A stretch of 46,786 bases of DNA, taken from assembly GCA_020348445.1 (NCBI GenBank), contig CP070751.1, forward strand, positions 2,963,334-3,010,119, written 5' to 3'. Shown here one piece after another: positions 15,087-22,337 of this stretch. This DNA is from Thermoplasmata archaeon (lineage in GTDB: Archaea; Thermoplasmatota; Thermoplasmata; GCA-020350865). The notes beneath the pieces were generated by a model that worked only from the letters and a program-made list of their open reading frames with translations, was not told the origin of the DNA and made no database searches. Both the position numbers and the translations under genes were made by a program. The first letter of the stretch is position 1; the number at the start of each line of letters is the position of its first letter.

Positions 15087-15182
15087 AATACCCCATTTTT
15101 TTCCATTACACTATTGTTTCACTTTCCTAAATATCGTCCCACTGATTTTAAAGATTTTGTAGGAGAAAAGAAAAAAAGGAGA

Positions 15183-15749
15183 TTATTTGACTTTTACTGA
15201 GTGGGTTTTTTCCTTAGATATAGGCTTTTTCTTAGGTAATGTTATGTATAGGATTCCATCCTCCAATGTGGCATCTGCCATGTTGGGAATGACTTCGGTT
15301 GGTAAGGGCATATTTCTGTAACAGGTTGTGAATCTCCTTTCTTGATGAAAGTAACCCTCTTCTTCCTCCTCCACAGATTTCATTTCCCCACAGATCTCTA
15401 TGGAATTTTCTGTTAACTGGATATCGATATTCTCTTTGGGAATACCAGGCATTTCGGCCTCTATCACCAGTTCTTTTCCTGTATCCTTGATGTCTATTAA
15501 AGGTTGTCTTGTCTCGGCCCAGTCCAGCTTTGGCAAATAAAAATCAGGCCAATTTAGAAGTGTAGAGCCAATTCTTGTGCGAGGCCACCAAAGCGCTCGA
15601 TCGATATTTCGTCTGAACTCTTCTAATTCTTGGTCAAAACTTCGCAGTTTATCTGGTGAGTGTGATCTTGATGGTTCCCGAGGAATCAACTTTTTAGACT
15701 TCTCTTCTTTTTTGGAACCTTTACCTTTCTTTTCACTATTCTTTGCCAT
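15183..15749 (-). CDS. Small heat-shock protein (Hsp20/alpha-crystallin)
   Basis: PLIDIKDTGKELVIEAEMPGIPKENIDI...ATLEDGILYITLPKK. Confidence 0.93.
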   Translation of the reverse strand: MAKNSEKKGKGSKKEEKSKKLIPREPSRSHSPDKLRSFDQELEEFRRNIDRALWWPRTRIGSTLLNWPDFYLPKLDWAETRQPLIDIKDTGKELVIEAEMPGIPKENIDIQLTENSIEICGEMKSVEEEEEGYFHQERRFTTCYRNMPLPTEVIPNMADATLEDGILYITLPKKKPISKEKTHSVKVK

Positions 15750-15799
15750 TTTTTAACCTCCACATTTTCATGATGATATGATTGCTGAATCATAATTAA

Positions 15800-15870
15800 T
15801 AGATATTTCAAAATCTGTTAAAGAATATACATATATGATTCATAATTTAGATGCAAATTATGTGCAAATT
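15800..15870 (-). promoter_or_regulatory. Hsp20 promoter carrying the shared AATTTGYAT repeat plus AGATTTTGAAA box
   Basis: Minus strand reads AATTTGCACAT AATTTGCATCT; the second repeat starts 43 nt before AGATTTTGAAA (15859 to 15816). Confidence 0.7.
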
Positions 15871-15903
15871 AATCCCGTTTTGTTTTCCAATTGATAATTG
15901 GAT

Positions 15904-17835
15904 TTACTTGGTTTCTGGAATGATTCTCTGAGCCGAGATTGATGATACAACATTACCGTCATGATCATAGATTGTGTTAACGTTGAGCTCGATATCGATT
16001 TTCTGTCCCTCTTTTGTAATTATTTTAAGTTTTTTATTGCGTAATTTGCCTGTCTTTTGCCATTCCATAAAGAATTTTTTTGCATCTGTTTTGAATTCAT
16101 CTGCATATATATTGAAAAGGGGCATACCAATCAGCTCAGATTTTTTATAACCAAGGGTTTTTATTGCTGTGTCATTACAATCCAGAATTTCTCCCTGGGG
16201 GCTGATTCGATAGAAGAGATCAGGTGAGGTATTAAAGGCTACCCTGTATCTTTCTTCGCTCTCTTTCAATGCCTCCTCTGTTATTATTTTAGCTCTCGCA
16301 AATGATAGGTCAATTGCCAGCTCCTCAAGTATATTTATTTCTTCGGCATCAATTTCATGTTCCGCATCAGAGCAGACGATGGTTATGCCCACAACCTTAT
16401 CCTGATGCTTCATTGGAATCAAAATGGTCTGATGATCCTCTTCATGTTTGCAATATTTACAACTTGTGCAGTATCCTTCGTTTCTATCCAATATTTGATT
16501 CGATCCAGATTTTAAAACCGCCTTGATGCATTCAGGTGCAGTTCCCTCTCCATCTTGAGAGATTTCCCATGTATCCCTTTCATGCTTGCCTGAATGCCCT
16601 GTGGGAACGATCCTTCCCTTGGATTCATCGAGAACAACGATAGATATATCGAGATAATCCCTTGTTTCAACCAGCTTTTCACAGGACCCCTGCATAAGTC
16701 CCCTTAAATCGGATTCGTAACTTATTATCTGTCCAATATCCTTCATGGCCGTGAGCAAATCATTCAGATATCTTATTCTATCCTCTGCCACCTTGTTTAT
16801 TGTGATATCCTGAACAATACCGAGCATTCGAATTGGCTTCCCTTCTGCGTTTCTAATGACATCACCAGTTTCTGAAACCCATCTGACTGTTCCGTCAGGC
16901 CAGACAATGCGATGGTGGATTGAATATTCCTTGTCCTCTTCTACACTGAGGTTTACTGAATCCTTTACAAATTCTCTATCGTCGGGATGGACGCTTTCTA
17001 AGAAGTCTTCGTAGGTGGCACCGAATTCCCCCTTAGAGAAACCGAATAAAGGTTCGATGGTATCTGACCAGAATAAGTCACCTGTAATGATATTCCAATC
17101 CCAACTTCCGATATTGGCTGCTTTCTGAGCTAGTGCATATCTCTCCTCACTACGAATCAGGGCTTCCTCGGCTTGCTTACGTTTTGTGATGTTCCTTGAT
17201 AAAATCGAAAACCCAATAAGATTATCGTTTTCATCCTTTATGCCATCCATTGTAAGGGCAACTTCTATGGATTCTCCTGATTTGTGGTTAAGCTTGGTTT
17301 CATAATCCACAACAGATTCACCATTGGAGACCTTATTAATCAATTCGTCCAGAGTTTTGGAATCAGGAAATATTTGAAGAGAGTCACCCATGATCTCCTC
17401 TTCCTTATAGCCGGACAATTCCTCTGCACTCTGGTTTAAAAAAAACACCTGGCTTTCTTTGTTAATAATAATTACTGCATCATTGGTCTGTTCCATCACA
17501 TTCTGGAAGAATTTTGGTGAAGATGTAAAGTCTTTTAGCTTCTTGGATTTCTCGAATTTCTTAATGATATCCCTGAAGATCTCCATGTTTCCTTCCATAT
17601 CTGGGGTTAAGAAATATACCTCGCCGTATCCTCCAGTCTTGGATGTGCTTACCAGTTCATTTTTTAGAAGAACATCCACATGATGTTTTACTGTGCGATA
17701 ATTGAGATTTAAGATTTCGGCCAGTTGATTGAGATTATAAGGTCTTTCGTTGAGCAGCTCGAGAATTTGAATCCTGTTATGACCGCCTTTTTGACCTAGA
17801 ATCAGATATGAGAGTGTTTTCGTTAATTGTCTCAA
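15904..17835 (-). CDS. One-component regulator: winged-HTH, PAS, PAS, GAF, PAS
   Basis: N-terminal ArsR-like wHTH (NLNQLAEILNLNYRTVKHHVDVL), PAS/PAC motifs (VHPDDRE, WVSETG, GIVQDIT), GAF segment; no kinase domain; GGAGGAGG RBS. Confidence 0.9.
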   Translation of the reverse strand: MRQLTKTLSYLILGQKGGHNRIQILELLNERPYNLNQLAEILNLNYRTVKHHVDVLLKNELVSTSKTGGYGEVYFLTPDMEGNMEIFRDIIKKFEKSKKLKDFTSSPKFFQNVMEQTNDAVIIINKESQVFFLNQSAEELSGYKEEEIMGDSLQIFPDSKTLDELINKVSNGESVVDYETKLNHKSGESIEVALTMDGIKDENDNLIGFSILSRNITKRKQAEEALIRSEERYALAQKAANIGSWDWNIITGDLFWSDTIEPLFGFSKGEFGATYEDFLESVHPDDREFVKDSVNLSVEEDKEYSIHHRIVWPDGTVRWVSETGDVIRNAEGKPIRMLGIVQDITINKVAEDRIRYLNDLLTAMKDIGQIISYESDLRGLMQGSCEKLVETRDYLDISIVVLDESKGRIVPTGHSGKHERDTWEISQDGEGTAPECIKAVLKSGSNQILDRNEGYCTSCKYCKHEEDHQTILIPMKHQDKVVGITIVCSDAEHEIDAEEINILEELAIDLSFARAKIITEEALKESEERYRVAFNTSPDLFYRISPQGEILDCNDTAIKTLGYKKSELIGMPLFNIYADEFKTDAKKFFMEWQKTGKLRNKKLKIITKEGQKIDIELNVNTIYDHDGNVVSSISAQRIIPETK

Positions 17836-17942
17836 ATTGATCCGCCTCCTCCATATTAATTCTATTTTATCAATAAGGGTTTATGCCTTTAAGGATTTTT
17901 CTTTGTATTAATTCACACGATATTTAAGGTTTTGTCACTCAA

Positions 17943-18026
17943 AATTGTAACTAATTTGTATCTAATCTATTAAAGAATTATAATTGTTTTTCACCAGATT
18001 TTGAAAATCTGATATATATAGATGAT
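17943..18026 (+). promoter_or_regulatory. DUF1059/cupin/DsrE promoter carrying the shared motif
   Basis: AATTGTAACT AATTTGTATCT; repeat at 17953, AGATTTTGAAA at 17996 (43 nt), then GATATATATAGATGAT. Confidence 0.75.
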
Positions 18027-18055
18027 TTCCTACACGGAGATTGAGGTGAAAAAAT

Positions 18056-18241
18056 ATGACAGTGACTTTGGCTTGTAAGGATACGGGGACACAGTGTCCC
18101 TATGTGGCCCGTGGTGAAACCGACAATGAAGTTCTAATGGATGCTGGGCAGCACGCAAAGGCGGTCCACGGGTATACAGATGAGCAATTGAATGACGCTA
18201 AGATGATCGCGGATTTGAAAAAGCTCATTAAGAAGGAATAG
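18056..18241 (+). CDS. DUF1059-family small metal-binding protein
   Basis: LACKDTGTQCPYVARGET...HAKAVHG; GAGGTG RBS. Confidence 0.85.
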   Translation: MTVTLACKDTGTQCPYVARGETDNEVLMDAGQHAKAVHGYTDEQLNDAKMIADLKKLIKKE

Positions 18242-18365
18242 ATTCTATGAGATATTTTGCGCCGAATTTTCATTCGGTGCTCAATTTCTTTTTTGATTTA
18301 GATTGGGATTCAAGGCAATCATGGTAATTACAAAGGTGGGATTTGACCTGAAACAGGAAAGAAAA

Positions 18366-18782
18366 ATGAAGAAATCAGATGATACAGGTGTGTCCAAAAA
18401 GAAAAGGGTGTTAAATGGAGATTTCACGGAATCAGTTGAGATTTTTGATCTCAATGAATCACAAGGATTCAAAGTTGTCAAAAAGGTGCCGATACTAACT
18501 GACCAGCTCATGGCCACTGTTTTGATGATCCCACCCAATACAAAGATCCCGGCTCATATGCATTCTGAAAGTGATGAAATTCATTACATCGTCTCGGGCT
18601 CTGGGAAAATATCTATTGGCAAAGAAAACAGAGCCATAAAAGAGGGTATGTTGATTTTGGTTCCTAAAGCTAAATCGCATTATTTTACCACTGAGAAAAA
18701 GCCAATGGTAGTGTTGTCTAACAGCCCTGTATGCGAGCCTGTAAATGTTCTAAATAAAAAGGATGATGAGAAGATAAAATAG
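18366..18782 (+). CDS. Cupin-domain protein
   Basis: Cupin motifs HMHSESDEIHYIVSGSG and VPKAKSHYF; start could alternatively be 18303. Confidence 0.85.
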   Translation: MKKSDDTGVSKKKRVLNGDFTESVEIFDLNESQGFKVVKKVPILTDQLMATVLMIPPNTKIPAHMHSESDEIHYIVSGSGKISIGKENRAIKEGMLILVPKAKSHYFTTEKKPMVVLSNSPVCEPVNVLNKKDDEKIK

Positions 18783-18800
18783 AATATGGAGGTTTAAAAA

Positions 18801-19163
18801 ATGACAGATGAGAAATTTATATTGTATGTGCAGACAAGCGATGTCCCGGAGAGACAGTACTCTCCTTTGGTCTTGGCGCAGACTGCTAAGCATATGGAGC
18901 TCAAGCCCGTGGTTTACTATCTTGGCCAGGGATTGAAGATCCTAAGACCAGGTGAAGCGGAAAAGATAAAGCTTGGATCATTTCCAAGCGTAGGAGAAAT
19001 GCTGGACAAGACCCTAGAAATGGGTGTAGAGATCCTTGTATGCGAAGCGTCAAAGCAGATGCTGGGTTGGGAGAAGGTAGACCTAAGGCCAGGTGTGAAG
19101 ATCGTTGGCGCTGCAACTCTAAACGACCTGACACTGGATGCTGACGCAACACAGTGGTTCTAG
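18801..19163 (+). CDS. DsrE/DsrF-like protein
   Basis: PLVLAQTA...YYLGQG...GVEILVCEAS with conserved Cys; GGAGG RBS. Confidence 0.8.
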   Translation: MTDEKFILYVQTSDVPERQYSPLVLAQTAKHMELKPVVYYLGQGLKILRPGEAEKIKLGSFPSVGEMLDKTLEMGVEILVCEASKQMLGWEKVDLRPGVKIVGAATLNDLTLDADATQWF

Positions 19164-19322
19164 TAGAATGAATTGAGGAATAGAATTGAATAATCCCACA
19201 GGAGGGACTTCCGCATTAGCTAGACTTCTACTAATATAGCATAATTGAACAATTGATAGCGCCGAAGAAGGGCGCAATATAAATACTCAAATTCCCAGAA
19301 ATGGGAGGAGGTGAAAGAAAAT

Positions 19323-19751
19323 ATGTCAAAAGAAGAAAACAAGGCCATTGTTACTCGGATGTACGAGGAGATCCATAATAATGGAAATCTGAACAAAGCT
19401 GAGGAGCTGGTAACTTCAGATTTTGTGGATCGTACCCCGGCTATGCCTGACATGCCAAAAGGACCTGAAGGTGTAAAACTGCTCTTTGGTACGCTGCGTT
19501 CCGCTTTCCCGGATTTACATACCACAGTTGAGGATATGGTGTCCGAGGATGATAGGGTTGTAGCCAGGCTAACCATGCGTGGAACACACAAAGGTGAATT
19601 CATGGGGATTCCAGCTACTGGAAAGGAGATCAGCATAAGCGGAATAGATATCGTCAGATTATCAAAAGGTAAGGTGGCTGAGCGCTGGGGAGTTGCCGAT
19701 ATTGCAGGAATGATGCAGCAGCTCGGTGTCGGTCCCACACCAGGGCAGTAA
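19323..19751 (+). CDS. SnoaL-like ester cyclase
   Basis: EENKAIV...AFPDLHTTVEDMVSEDDRVVARLTMRGTHKGEFMGIPATGK. Confidence 0.9.
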   Translation: MSKEENKAIVTRMYEEIHNNGNLNKAEELVTSDFVDRTPAMPDMPKGPEGVKLLFGTLRSAFPDLHTTVEDMVSEDDRVVARLTMRGTHKGEFMGIPATGKEISISGIDIVRLSKGKVAERWGVADIAGMMQQLGVGPTPGQ

Positions 19752-19781
19752 AGGTAGTAAAGAACGAACCTTTTTTAGTTA

Positions 19782-19821
19782 ATAGGGAATGAGATTGATA
19801 TAAATAAATTCTCATCCCTAT
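19782..19821. terminator. Inverted repeat after the SnoaL gene, flanked by T-rich tracts
   Basis: ATAGGGAATGAGA ... TCTCATCCCTAT stem with one bulge. Confidence 0.45.
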
Positions 19822-20027
19822 ATTTTATTTATTTAATGTATTAAAATTGAAATAGTCACCACTATTATTTTAATTATGAAATTGTTAATAATTTATAAGA
19901 AATTTATATAAAAATAATATGATAATTCTTCTACAAAACAGAAATCTTAATTTATACAGGTTACGGTATCCCCCCGTCCGTATAACCGGATAATGCATGC
20001 AAGGATGAAAAATGGAGGTAAAGAATT

Positions 20028-21038
20028 ATGGATGGAATACGAAAAATAATGAGTATTTTAGTGATCACAGTGATGGCCGCCACTGTTATAGTTGTTGCAT
20101 TAACAGGGGCAGAGAACAGCAATGCAAGCCTTTCCCCAGTAAGTGGTGCTATTTTCACTACATTGGAGGATGGCTCGAGGGTGAATGCGAACATCTACGA
20201 GGACAAAAGGGACGTATATTTAGATGGCGGACCCGGACCAAATGCCCCGCCTGACGCAGCGGGACTTCCTGATGGTAATTACTATTTCCAGGTGACTAAT
20301 CCATCGGGAAAAAAGCTGTTGTCCATAGATTGTGTAGGCTGCAGGGAGTTTCGGGTGGAAGGTGGAGTAATCGTGGAGTACGTCTCAATGGAGAGAGGAT
20401 GTACATACACAGTTGGTAATGGAAAAAACGCAAAGGAAATACCATGCCATATCGATGGAAAGGAGAATGGACAACATGACGTTGGTGAGGATCTTGACCA
20501 CAATGCCCTTACCATACAGCTAATGCCCTACAAAGACACTCCAAATAAAGGAGGCGTATACAAGGTTTGGGCAACGCCAATTGAGCATTTCGTAGGAGAT
20601 CCAAGCAAGGTCGACAATGGATACAAACCAGGGTACTACCACGGCTTTATTCCAAGGTACTCTAAAACAGACAACTTCAAGGTGAGATTGCCAAAAGAGC
20701 CTCCAGAGACACCAGAGATCAAGATCTGTAAGTGGCGTGACTGCAATAGCAATGGTGTCTGGGACACACATGAAATAGCGATTTCGGGATGGAAGATAAC
20801 TGTATTAGATCCACTTGGAGTTGAAAACATATATTATACCTGTTGTGAGGGCTGCGTTATAATATATGCTCCCAAGGATGGAACATACATTATCAAAGAA
20901 GAAATCCAAAGCGGTTGGACTGTTACTGCCACGATTGTCAATGGAGTTTCAATCAGTCCAACAGACGAGGTGACACTGACTGTAAAAGCTCGGGCATCCT
21001 TGAGCTACAGCGTGGTATTTGGAAACCACCCACCCTGA
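20028..21038 (+). CDS. Secreted Cys-containing protein with C-terminal SdrD/prealbumin-like domain
   Basis: Signal peptide; EIKICKWRDCNSNGVWD...ISGWKITV...GTYIIKEEIQSGWTVT. Confidence 0.75.
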   Translation: MDGIRKIMSILVITVMAATVIVVALTGAENSNASLSPVSGAIFTTLEDGSRVNANIYEDKRDVYLDGGPGPNAPPDAAGLPDGNYYFQVTNPSGKKLLSIDCVGCREFRVEGGVIVEYVSMERGCTYTVGNGKNAKEIPCHIDGKENGQHDVGEDLDHNALTIQLMPYKDTPNKGGVYKVWATPIEHFVGDPSKVDNGYKPGYYHGFIPRYSKTDNFKVRLPKEPPETPEIKICKWRDCNSNGVWDTHEIAISGWKITVLDPLGVENIYYTCCEGCVIIYAPKDGTYIIKEEIQSGWTVTATIVNGVSISPTDEVTLTVKARASLSYSVVFGNHPP

Positions 21039-21091
21039 CCATGAACATAATAAAATACATCAACACAAGATAACTGAGCCTAAAAGAACTA

Positions 21092-21125
21092 GGATGGGGT
21101 ATTCCTATCCATCATCTTTTTTTTT
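21092..21125 (+). terminator. Hairpin plus poly-T terminator
   Basis: GGATGGGG-TAT-TCCTATCC followed by a T10 run. Confidence 0.5.
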
Positions 21126-21147
21126 ATAAATTAATTACTATTTTTAG

Positions 21148-21231
21148 AATTGTACCAAATTTGTATGCAACTTGTAAGAGAAATATAATTTTTTTATATG
21201 AGATTTTGAAATTTTGATATATATAGATGAT
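21148..21231 (+). promoter_or_regulatory. Second SnoaL gene promoter carrying the shared motif
   Basis: AATTGTACCA AATTTGTATGC AACTTGTA; repeat at 21158, AGATTTTGAAA at 21201 (43 nt), then GATATATATAGATGAT. Confidence 0.75.
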
Positions 21232-21276
21232 GTGATTGTGGATTTCATGATAAAACAGAACAGGAGGTGAAACAGA

Positions 21277-21705
21277 ATGAGTGTAGAAGAAAACTTGAAG
21301 GTGATAAAAGCCGTTGACGAGGCTTCCAACAGCAGGGATTGGGAGGCCTTTGCTTCACATCACATTGAAGATGTTATCTCGTACAGTCCCATGAGGCCTG
21401 AACCCACAAAAGGCATTACTGCCCATGTTGAAGTAGTTCAAGGCTTACTAAGTGCTTTTCCAGATTTTAAAATGACTAGGGACCAGATGTTCGGTCAAGG
21501 AGATTGGGCCTATGTTGGTTATACACTAACAGGAACACATAAGGGATCACTACCAGGCCCAGGGGGTAAACCGATTCCTCCAACCAACAAACCCATCAAA
21601 CTTCCTTTAGGTTCTACATTGAGGTTTGAGAACGGCAAGATAGCAGAGGAACACATATATTTTGACCGTCTCGGGATGCTGGGACAGTTAGGTGTGACCC
21701 TATAG
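21277..21705 (+). CDS. SnoaL-like ester cyclase (second paralog)
   Basis: AFPDFKMTRDQMFGQGDWAYVGYTLTGTHKG...IPPTNK...ENGKIAEEHIYFD. Confidence 0.9.
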   Translation: MSVEENLKVIKAVDEASNSRDWEAFASHHIEDVISYSPMRPEPTKGITAHVEVVQGLLSAFPDFKMTRDQMFGQGDWAYVGYTLTGTHKGSLPGPGGKPIPPTNKPIKLPLGSTLRFENGKIAEEHIYFDRLGMLGQLGVTL

Positions 21706-21821
21706 AGGGAAACCTTAGCCCAATCTTGGTTATCTCCCCCCTCAATTTTTTTATTTTTATTGATATTTCTAATATATAATTTTTGTTCATATCACGTTTT
21801 AATGAGGATTCATCATATTGA

Positions 21822-21910
21822 AATTGTATATAATTTGTATATGATTTGCATTTCAGATATATGTGTTTTGTAACAGATTTTGAAAATTCAATTAATATAA
21901 GCAATGATAT
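21822..21910 (+). promoter_or_regulatory. Superoxide reductase promoter carrying the shared motif
   Basis: AATTGTATAT AATTTGTATAT GATTTGCA; repeat at 21832, AGATTTTGAAA at 21875 (43 nt). Confidence 0.75.
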
Positions 21911-21926: not shown

Positions 21927-22337
21927 ATGGGTGAAAAAATGGGAGAAATAAAGGATCTATTTCAAACTGCGGATTGGAAAGTCGAAAAACATGTACCAGT
22001 GATATCACTCCCAGATAAAATAAAAAAAGACGAGCTGGTAAAAATAACCGTGAGCGTAGGAAAAGAGATACCCCATCCGAACACCACTGAACATCATATA
22101 GGGTGGATTGAGTTGTTCTTTTTACCTTCCCAAGGTAGGTTCCCTTACTCTATCGGAAGATTTGAATTCTCTGCCCACGGTGCTTCCTCCGAGGGCCCCA
22201 ATACCAGCTCGATTTATACCCAACCTGAGGTGGTCTGCACAATGAAATCTGGAATGACAGGAACCGTGCTGGCCACCTCTTTCTGCAATATTCACGGCCT
22301 ATGGACCAGTTCCGCAGAATTAAAAGTTGAGGATTAA
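21927..22337 (+). CDS. sor: Superoxide reductase (neelaredoxin type)
   Basis: EKHVP, HPNTTEHHIGWIEL and FCNIHGLW iron-site motifs. Confidence 0.93.
   Translation: MGEKMGEIKDLFQTADWKVEKHVPVISLPDKIKKDELVKITVSVGKEIPHPNTTEHHIGWIELFFLPSQGRFPYSIGRFEFSAHGASSEGPNTSSIYTQPEVVCTMKSGMTGTVLATSFCNIHGLWTSSAELKVED

Follow-up and report, generated by a model that had tools for sequence, protein, structure and literature searches.

We analysed a stretch of 46,786 nucleotides (hereafter, the window) from a Thermoplasmata archaeon (assembly GCA_020348445.1, contig CP070751.1, positions 2,963,334 to 3,010,119), in which several promoters carry the same control module, a phased array of short A/T-rich units ending just before the TATA box, and lie around the gene for a candidate one-component regulator. 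The window lies within a single-contig genome of 5.16 Mb (41.5% G+C). The regulator gene (15904–17835, minus strand) encodes a protein of 643 amino acids with an ArsR-type winged helix-turn-helix (wHTH) followed by PAS, PAS, GAF and PAS domains and no kinase domain, and is the sole member of its wHTH family in this genome. Near it lie hsp20 (15183–15749, minus), an operon of DUF1059, cupin and DsrE-like genes (18056–19163, plus), a SnoaL-like gene (21277–21705, plus) and a gene for a neelaredoxin-type superoxide reductase (21927–22337, plus), each preceded by a module.

An initial annotation of the window had described these promoters as sharing two elements, AATTTGYAT and AGATTTTGAAA, set exactly 43 nt apart, and had placed the regulator gene divergently from the second of them. 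Both statements hold. AATTTGYAT starts at 15859 (minus), 17953, 21158 and 21832, and AGATTTTGAAA, here termed the proximal box, at 15816 (minus), 17996, 21201 and 21875, with an offset of 43 nt at 4/4 sites; the four upstream regions align without gaps over ~80 nt, and the regulator gene is indeed divergent from the DUF1059 site. An identical 16-mer, GATATATATAGATGAT, likewise follows two of the sites (18012–18027 and 21217–21232) and spans the TATA box. As delimited here, the module before hsp20 occupies 15782–15876 on the minus strand (repeats 1 to 3 at 15870–15838, proximal box 15816–15806, TATA box 15799–15792); that before DUF1059, 17936–18030 on the plus strand (repeats 17942–17974, proximal box 17996–18006, TATA box 18013–18020); that before the SnoaL-like gene, the second of its kind in this region, 21141–21235 on the plus strand (repeats 21147–21179, proximal box 21201–21211, TATA box 21218–21225); and that before the superoxide reductase gene, 21815–21909 on the plus strand (repeats 21821–21853, proximal box 21875–21885, TATA box 21892–21899).

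Genome-wide scans showed the module to be rare. The exact composite of AATTTGYAT and AGATTTTGAAA occurs at four places in the genome, all in the window, against ~5e-4 expected by chance on a rough estimate; AGATTTTGAAA alone occurs 26 times, and its remaining 22 occurrences are not promoter-like. A matrix built from the window's four sites scored these at 100–115 and found a fifth strong module at 34.5, before a DUF3303 gene 2 Mb from the window (L001:2976–3070), with every other position at or below 0. A second profile, model R1, built from 13 sites, gave the five strong sites 57–69 bits (57.2 for hsp20, 68.6 for DUF1059, 57.6 for the SnoaL-like gene and 63.3 for superoxide reductase) and its next-best match 24 bits; the latter, L054, lies before a gene for a SHOCT-domain membrane protein and is conserved in the relative G001. 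Weaker matches followed at 21 bits (L002) and, in the window, at 17.2 bits (19875–19965, plus; E 0.0175), the last a degenerate copy before a gene for a secreted protein of 336 amino acids. All four sites originally listed are confirmed, and the list was incomplete, there being five strong sites plus one or two weak ones. A candidate sixth composite place, at genome position 1896265, was rejected because of its out-of-phase units and its position inside a repeated element. Near-identical copies of that element, which contains AGATTTTGAAA and is unrelated to the module, were seen at C1:1896265 and 1990897.

This rarity bears on readings that take the block for something generic to promoters, for the mark of an alternative transcription factor B (TFB) or for a leader RNA with structure. 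In their favour, the proximal box contains a GAAA that resembles the purine runs of TFB-recognition elements (BREs), and one site forms a perfect palindrome. Yet there are just five strong sites in 5.16 Mb, and a crude sample of 77 generic promoters anchored on Shine–Dalgarno sequences holds no such signal. That sample stood in place of tRNA promoters, which yielded no usable consensus, their set being odd and partly masked: Aragorn returned just 38 tRNA-like hits over the whole genome, several of them odd Gln calls, together with masked stretches, and the complement of tRNA genes seems incomplete or unusual. An alternative-TFB promoter class was rejected since the genome has a single TFB gene, and an RNA or riboswitch since the block, which lies upstream of the TATA box, gave no consensus pairs, no covariation and no Rfam match. 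Already contradicted on these counts, the whole group of explanations has a probability close to nil, and the genome-wide generic motif that the initial annotation had named as its own refutation was looked for and is not what we find.

Closer inspection of the module altered its description in one respect. The direct repeats are present as reported, with a period of 11 bp and three units per site, and AATTTGYAT and AGATTTTGAAA are not two separate motifs: both are units of one 11-bp-phased array, consisting of three well-conserved units with the core TTGTA or TTGCA, two degenerate A/T-rich units and a last unit, AGATTTTGAAA, with the TATA box at a fixed column 6 nt beyond it. At the DUF1059 site the proximal box forms a perfect 17-bp palindrome (17995–18011), with 8-nt arms around a central G and a minus-strand match with one mismatch at 18000–18010; the remaining sites share an invariant left arm, and their right arm, which occupies -7 to -2 relative to the TATA box, is degenerate and partly kept. 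Among relatives, the offsets from units to the proximal box equal 10 modulo 11 in 24/34 cases. Measured from G to G, repeat 3 and the proximal box stand at quantised distances: 34 nt at standard sites, 23 nt at the L054/L100 site and 12 nt where a compact module precedes the cupin gene in G001. That compact module (L004:5440–5510, minus) has four contiguous 11-bp units and no spacer, and it has no counterpart at the same place in the present genome (18242–18366); in G067, six units are contiguous. Phasing of this sort suggests that the proteins line up on one face of the helix.

An explanation with no dedicated regulator would have a strong promoter cassette copied about the genome, its copies being alike either because they were duplicated recently or because phased A/T tracts give the DNA an intrinsic curvature. 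It would suit sites that are A/T-rich with an 11-bp period, 4/5 of which fall within 6 kb. Conservation is, however, column-specific, and paralogous and orthologous sites keep the same columns. Within each unit the G hardly varies, whereas the spacers have diverged; how well each column is conserved in the present genome is also correlated with its conservation in the sites of other genomes (r = 0.74), which argues against a merely duplicated cassette. The architecture also survives in other families at unrelated genes. We regard an explanation of this kind as very improbable.

These comparisons covered a class sample of 151 Thermoplasmata genomes, the relatives being uncultured Thermoplasmata, with one record labelled Methanomassiliicoccales. 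Matrices trained on this genome only found ungapped modules beside regulator orthologues of 85, 73, 64 and 42% identity, mostly again divergent from DUF1059 or before a cupin gene, and the divergent layout of regulator and module is conserved in G000, G001, G004, L005, L007, G015 and G020. Across the class, the module was found in 8/151 genomes from six families and the wHTH family in 63/151, all eight module-bearing genomes falling among those 63; within the genus, module and wHTH gene are both present in three genomes and both absent in two. Five genomes of other families have a single module match lying 25 nt to ~2.4 kb from a wHTH-coding stretch, with unrelated genes downstream of the module (FtsZ-like, PRC-barrel, SDR), and the farthest case is G071, with two modules at ~0.7 kb and ~1.5 kb beyond the point where the wHTH gene is estimated to end. 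One stretch of G071 (L056, G071:C3:6652–9733) has a module at 1501–1582 before an FtsZ/tubulin-family gene, which suggests that a paralogous wHTH-PAS regulator may control a cell-division homologue there.

Stress-related genes recur behind the module in further genomes. In G001 the same module stands directly before DOMON-b561 and peroxiredoxin genes; the cargo in G152 consists of cupin, rubredoxin-like and desulfoferrodoxin genes; and on the metagenome contig L170 the 3′ end of a regulator gene is followed by a module and then by two hsp20 genes. L170 came from a loose 17-base pattern scan of metagenome contigs, in which at least 120 stretches matched and 80 loci were taken on; it was the one locus of the 80 to fit the full-length model at an E-value of 0.001 or better, and the set is of use mainly as a negative control. 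The initial annotation had proposed a regulon around the wHTH-PAS-GAF-PAS protein with a theme of redox or oxygen stress. The first part gains comparative support, module and wHTH family co-occurring and adjoining across six families, and the second is supported by a conserved cargo of superoxide reductase/desulfoferrodoxin, peroxiredoxin, rubredoxin-like, cupin and Hsp20 proteins.

The same linkage bears on whether the array might be read by a different factor, with the PAS protein a mere neighbour, or by two proteins, one on the upstream repeats and one on the proximal palindrome. A small Lrp/AsnC-like open reading frame lies between the wHTH gene and the module in G062, and the G of the proximal box is shifted by 1 nt relative to that of a repeat unit, as either version might have it. 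Against this, module and wHTH family also adjoin in five additional families whose cargo is unrelated, wHTH gene and module are jointly missing from two genomes of the genus, and the proximal box of the compact variants is no more than the following 11-bp unit. We consider a different or a second reader unlikely.

The regulator itself passes the Pfam test for HTH_5 (PF01022; 32.2 bits against a cut-off of 22, residues 20–63) and falls below the cut-offs of the NCBIfam models for ArsR/SmtB metalloregulators (NF033788; 29.7–33.7 bits against 55) and Phr/HSR1 (NF053602; 16.3 bits against 320). HTH_5, PAS and GAF were the only domains matched in our search, which returned no V4R and no AsnC-type HTH plus RAM; HTH_5 with three PAS domains and a GAF, and no HisKA, HATPase or receiver hit, is the make-up of a one-component regulator. 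The best sequence matches of the wHTH are to the bacterial ArsR/SmtB protein CzrA (PDB 1R1U/4GGG), with weak sequence similarity to Phr/HSR1 (PDB 2P4W), and its recognition-helix region is almost invariant across the wHTH family. In the GAF domain (16252–16782, minus), cysteines at segment positions 85, 105, 108 and 137 and two histidines are invariant in six sequences, including that of a distant family member; this set may form a metal, iron–sulphur or thiol-switch site. A structure model of the domain shows a generic GAF fold (predicted local distance difference test score 87), in which the CxxC loop is the sole low-confidence part. Kinship of the GAF domain with methionine sulfoxide reductases was considered and dropped: a fold search lists fRMsr among generic GAF hits, and a profile search gives no sequence link. 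On the other side of the shared intergenic region, a putative TATA box for the regulator's own promoter (17920–17927, minus), conserved in L003, L004 and L007, lies ~14 nt from repeat 1, so that the three repeats could serve both divergent promoters. The autoregulation proposed for this protein is therefore plausible, the divergent layout being conserved as well.

Taken together, we put at roughly three in four the probability that the regulator binds the array and governs a small redox-stress regulon. On this reading the neighbouring one-component regulator would have the shared block as its operator array and would bind it as an oligomer, with several wHTH domains lining up on one DNA face over TTGTA-type units spaced by 11 bp. 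The last unit, AGATTTTGAAA, half of a pseudo-palindrome, would reach into the BRE position, from where the protein would control the access of TFB and TATA-binding protein at the hsp20, DUF1059-cupin-DsrE, SnoaL-like, superoxide reductase and DUF3303 promoters; one or two weak promoters would be further targets, and the regulator's own divergent promoter probably another. The PAS/GAF array, whose GAF carries the four invariant cysteines, would detect a redox or oxygen signal.

The initial annotation had also taken the regulon to be activator-driven, and this is not established. Activation at promoters with a weak BRE has, in our estimate, close to an even chance; repression by occlusion of the BRE is a serious possibility somewhat short of even, and dual action would be fairly unlikely. 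For activation, all units lie upstream of the TATA box, and A never occurs at -4/-3 before it in the modules, against 42–45% in the crude sample of 77 generic promoters; a non-A BRE would resemble the weak-BRE, activator-dependent logic of EarA (PMC5512572).

Several points weigh against the proposed regulon or its activating form. Proteins with an ArsR-type wHTH are mostly repressors. The non-A positions may be merely the right arm of the operator, and box B of the Methanosarcina acetivorans regulator MsvR (MaMsvR), which lies upstream of the TATA box, is thought to repress by blocking the BRE (PMC3729527), the very position that the proximal box reaches here. The redox or oxygen signal would be deduced from the cargo and the conserved GAF cysteines only. 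The source organism is uncultured and represented by metagenome-derived sequence only, the sites within the genus come from close kin, and many genomes that carry the wHTH family gave no module match at the chosen threshold, which implies either diverged specificity or a narrow model.

The fullest repressor version keeps the same protein and sites and has a reduced-state oligomer filling the array up to the BRE and keeping TFB off strong TATA promoters until oxidation of the sensor releases it, as in MsvR. The position of the palindrome's right arm, the near-consensus TATA boxes of the modules and the usually repressive ArsR/SmtB-type fold would all suit it, as would the MaMsvR precedent. It sits less well with the absence of any unit over the TATA box or the expected start site and with the three best-conserved units lying 32–54 nt further upstream; at the regulator's own promoter, moreover, the repeats sit at the usual activator position (PMC5512572). 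This version in full is, in our judgement, rather unlikely.

A regulon of this make-up, whichever its sign, would place DUF1059, DUF3303, small cupin, SnoaL-like and DsrE-like proteins beside superoxide reductase, peroxiredoxin and Hsp20, giving these little-characterised domains a first functional context in the oxygen/redox stress response of an anaerobe. More tentatively, the whole Thermoplasmata wHTH family, from stand-alone proteins of 100 amino acids to PAS/GAF fusions, could share one promoter-switch design, in which a phased 11-bp array with a spacer quantised as 12 + 11n would nucleate a cooperative assembly on one DNA face reaching the BRE, gated in this subfamily by a Cys4 GAF redox or metal centre. 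We hold this extension to be doubtful; if true, the shared design would give archaeal promoters an operator grammar that is new, general and programmable.

Some features of the target genes deserve mention. A T-rich run (15160–15183, minus) lies directly past the hsp20 stop codon, and a TATA-like box precedes the downstream gene for a cysteinyl-tRNA synthetase-like protein, so hsp20 and the genes beyond it may form two transcription units here; because of the T-run, co-transcription of the cysteinyl-tRNA synthetase-like, DOMON-b561 and peroxiredoxin genes (15086–11703) with hsp20 is uncertain. A hairpin followed by a T-run just after DUF1059 (18255–18300), conserved in G001, is a possible attenuating terminator between the DUF1059 and cupin genes. 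The first SnoaL-like gene (19311–19751) may belong to the same transcript as the DUF1059-cupin-DsrE operon, and superoxide reductase probably starts in truth at its second ATG (21939). The gene for the 336-residue secreted protein (20028–21038) lies between the two SnoaL-like genes; it has only the decayed module copy upstream and no equivalent at that place in G001.

A literature search found no paper on this wHTH family or motif. Among characterised systems, MsvR of Methanothermobacter thermautotrophicus and Methanosarcina acetivorans comes close: it is redox-responsive, autoregulated and divergent from an oxidative-stress operon, with several boxes in the shared intergenic region, one of them at the BRE (PMC3729527). 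Our candidate is likewise an archaeal regulator with an N-terminal HTH, a cysteine-bearing sensor domain and a redox theme, and its gene likewise diverges from a putative oxidative-stress operon across shared intergenic boxes. It differs in having a PAS-PAS-GAF-PAS sensor and not V4R, in boxes that are 11-bp direct repeats with a quantised spacer, and in belonging to Thermoplasmata, whereas MsvR is confined to some methanogens. The boxes of MsvR are of the TTCG/CGAA type. EarA at the fla promoter of Methanococcus maripaludis has four TACATA copies just upstream of the promoter's BRE and TATA box, where the BRE is weak and the promoter activator-dependent (PMC5512572, PMC10665913). The likeness to EarA is one of site layout only, multiple short A/T-rich units upstream of the BRE/TATA; here the array is strictly phased at 11 bp, includes a spacer and extends over ~66 bp; it is found at five or more promoters, and the protein paired with it has sensor domains.

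Ptr2 of Methanocaldococcus jannaschii, the analogy drawn in the initial annotation, also has upstream sites fixed relative to the TATA box; unlike Ptr2, the regulator has no Lrp/AsnC domain. Ptr2 is an activator of the Lrp family that recruits TATA-binding protein, and its sites are paired palindromes, not direct-repeat arrays. With Phr/HSR1 of Pyrococcus and Archaeoglobus the system shares an ArsR-like wHTH and hsp20 as a (here predicted) target; the operators of Phr overlap the transcription start, whereas all units here lie upstream of the TATA box. Bacterial ArsR/SmtB proteins such as CzrA bind palindromes as dimers, which the palindromic proximal box recalls; unlike them, the wHTH here is fused to a sensor array of 540 amino acids and the operator consists mainly of direct repeats.

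The system thus belongs to none of the MsvR, Lrp and Phr families and passes the generic HTH_5 test. As an archaeal one-component regulator with a predicted regulon it would not be surprising in kind. It does offer a concrete candidate regulator, operator and target list for an uncharacterised one-component family in uncultured Thermoplasmata, among which hardly any transcription factors have been studied by experiment. What would set it apart from the systems compared here is its quantised, phased operator, in which the 11-bp spacing makes a sharp and directly testable prediction.

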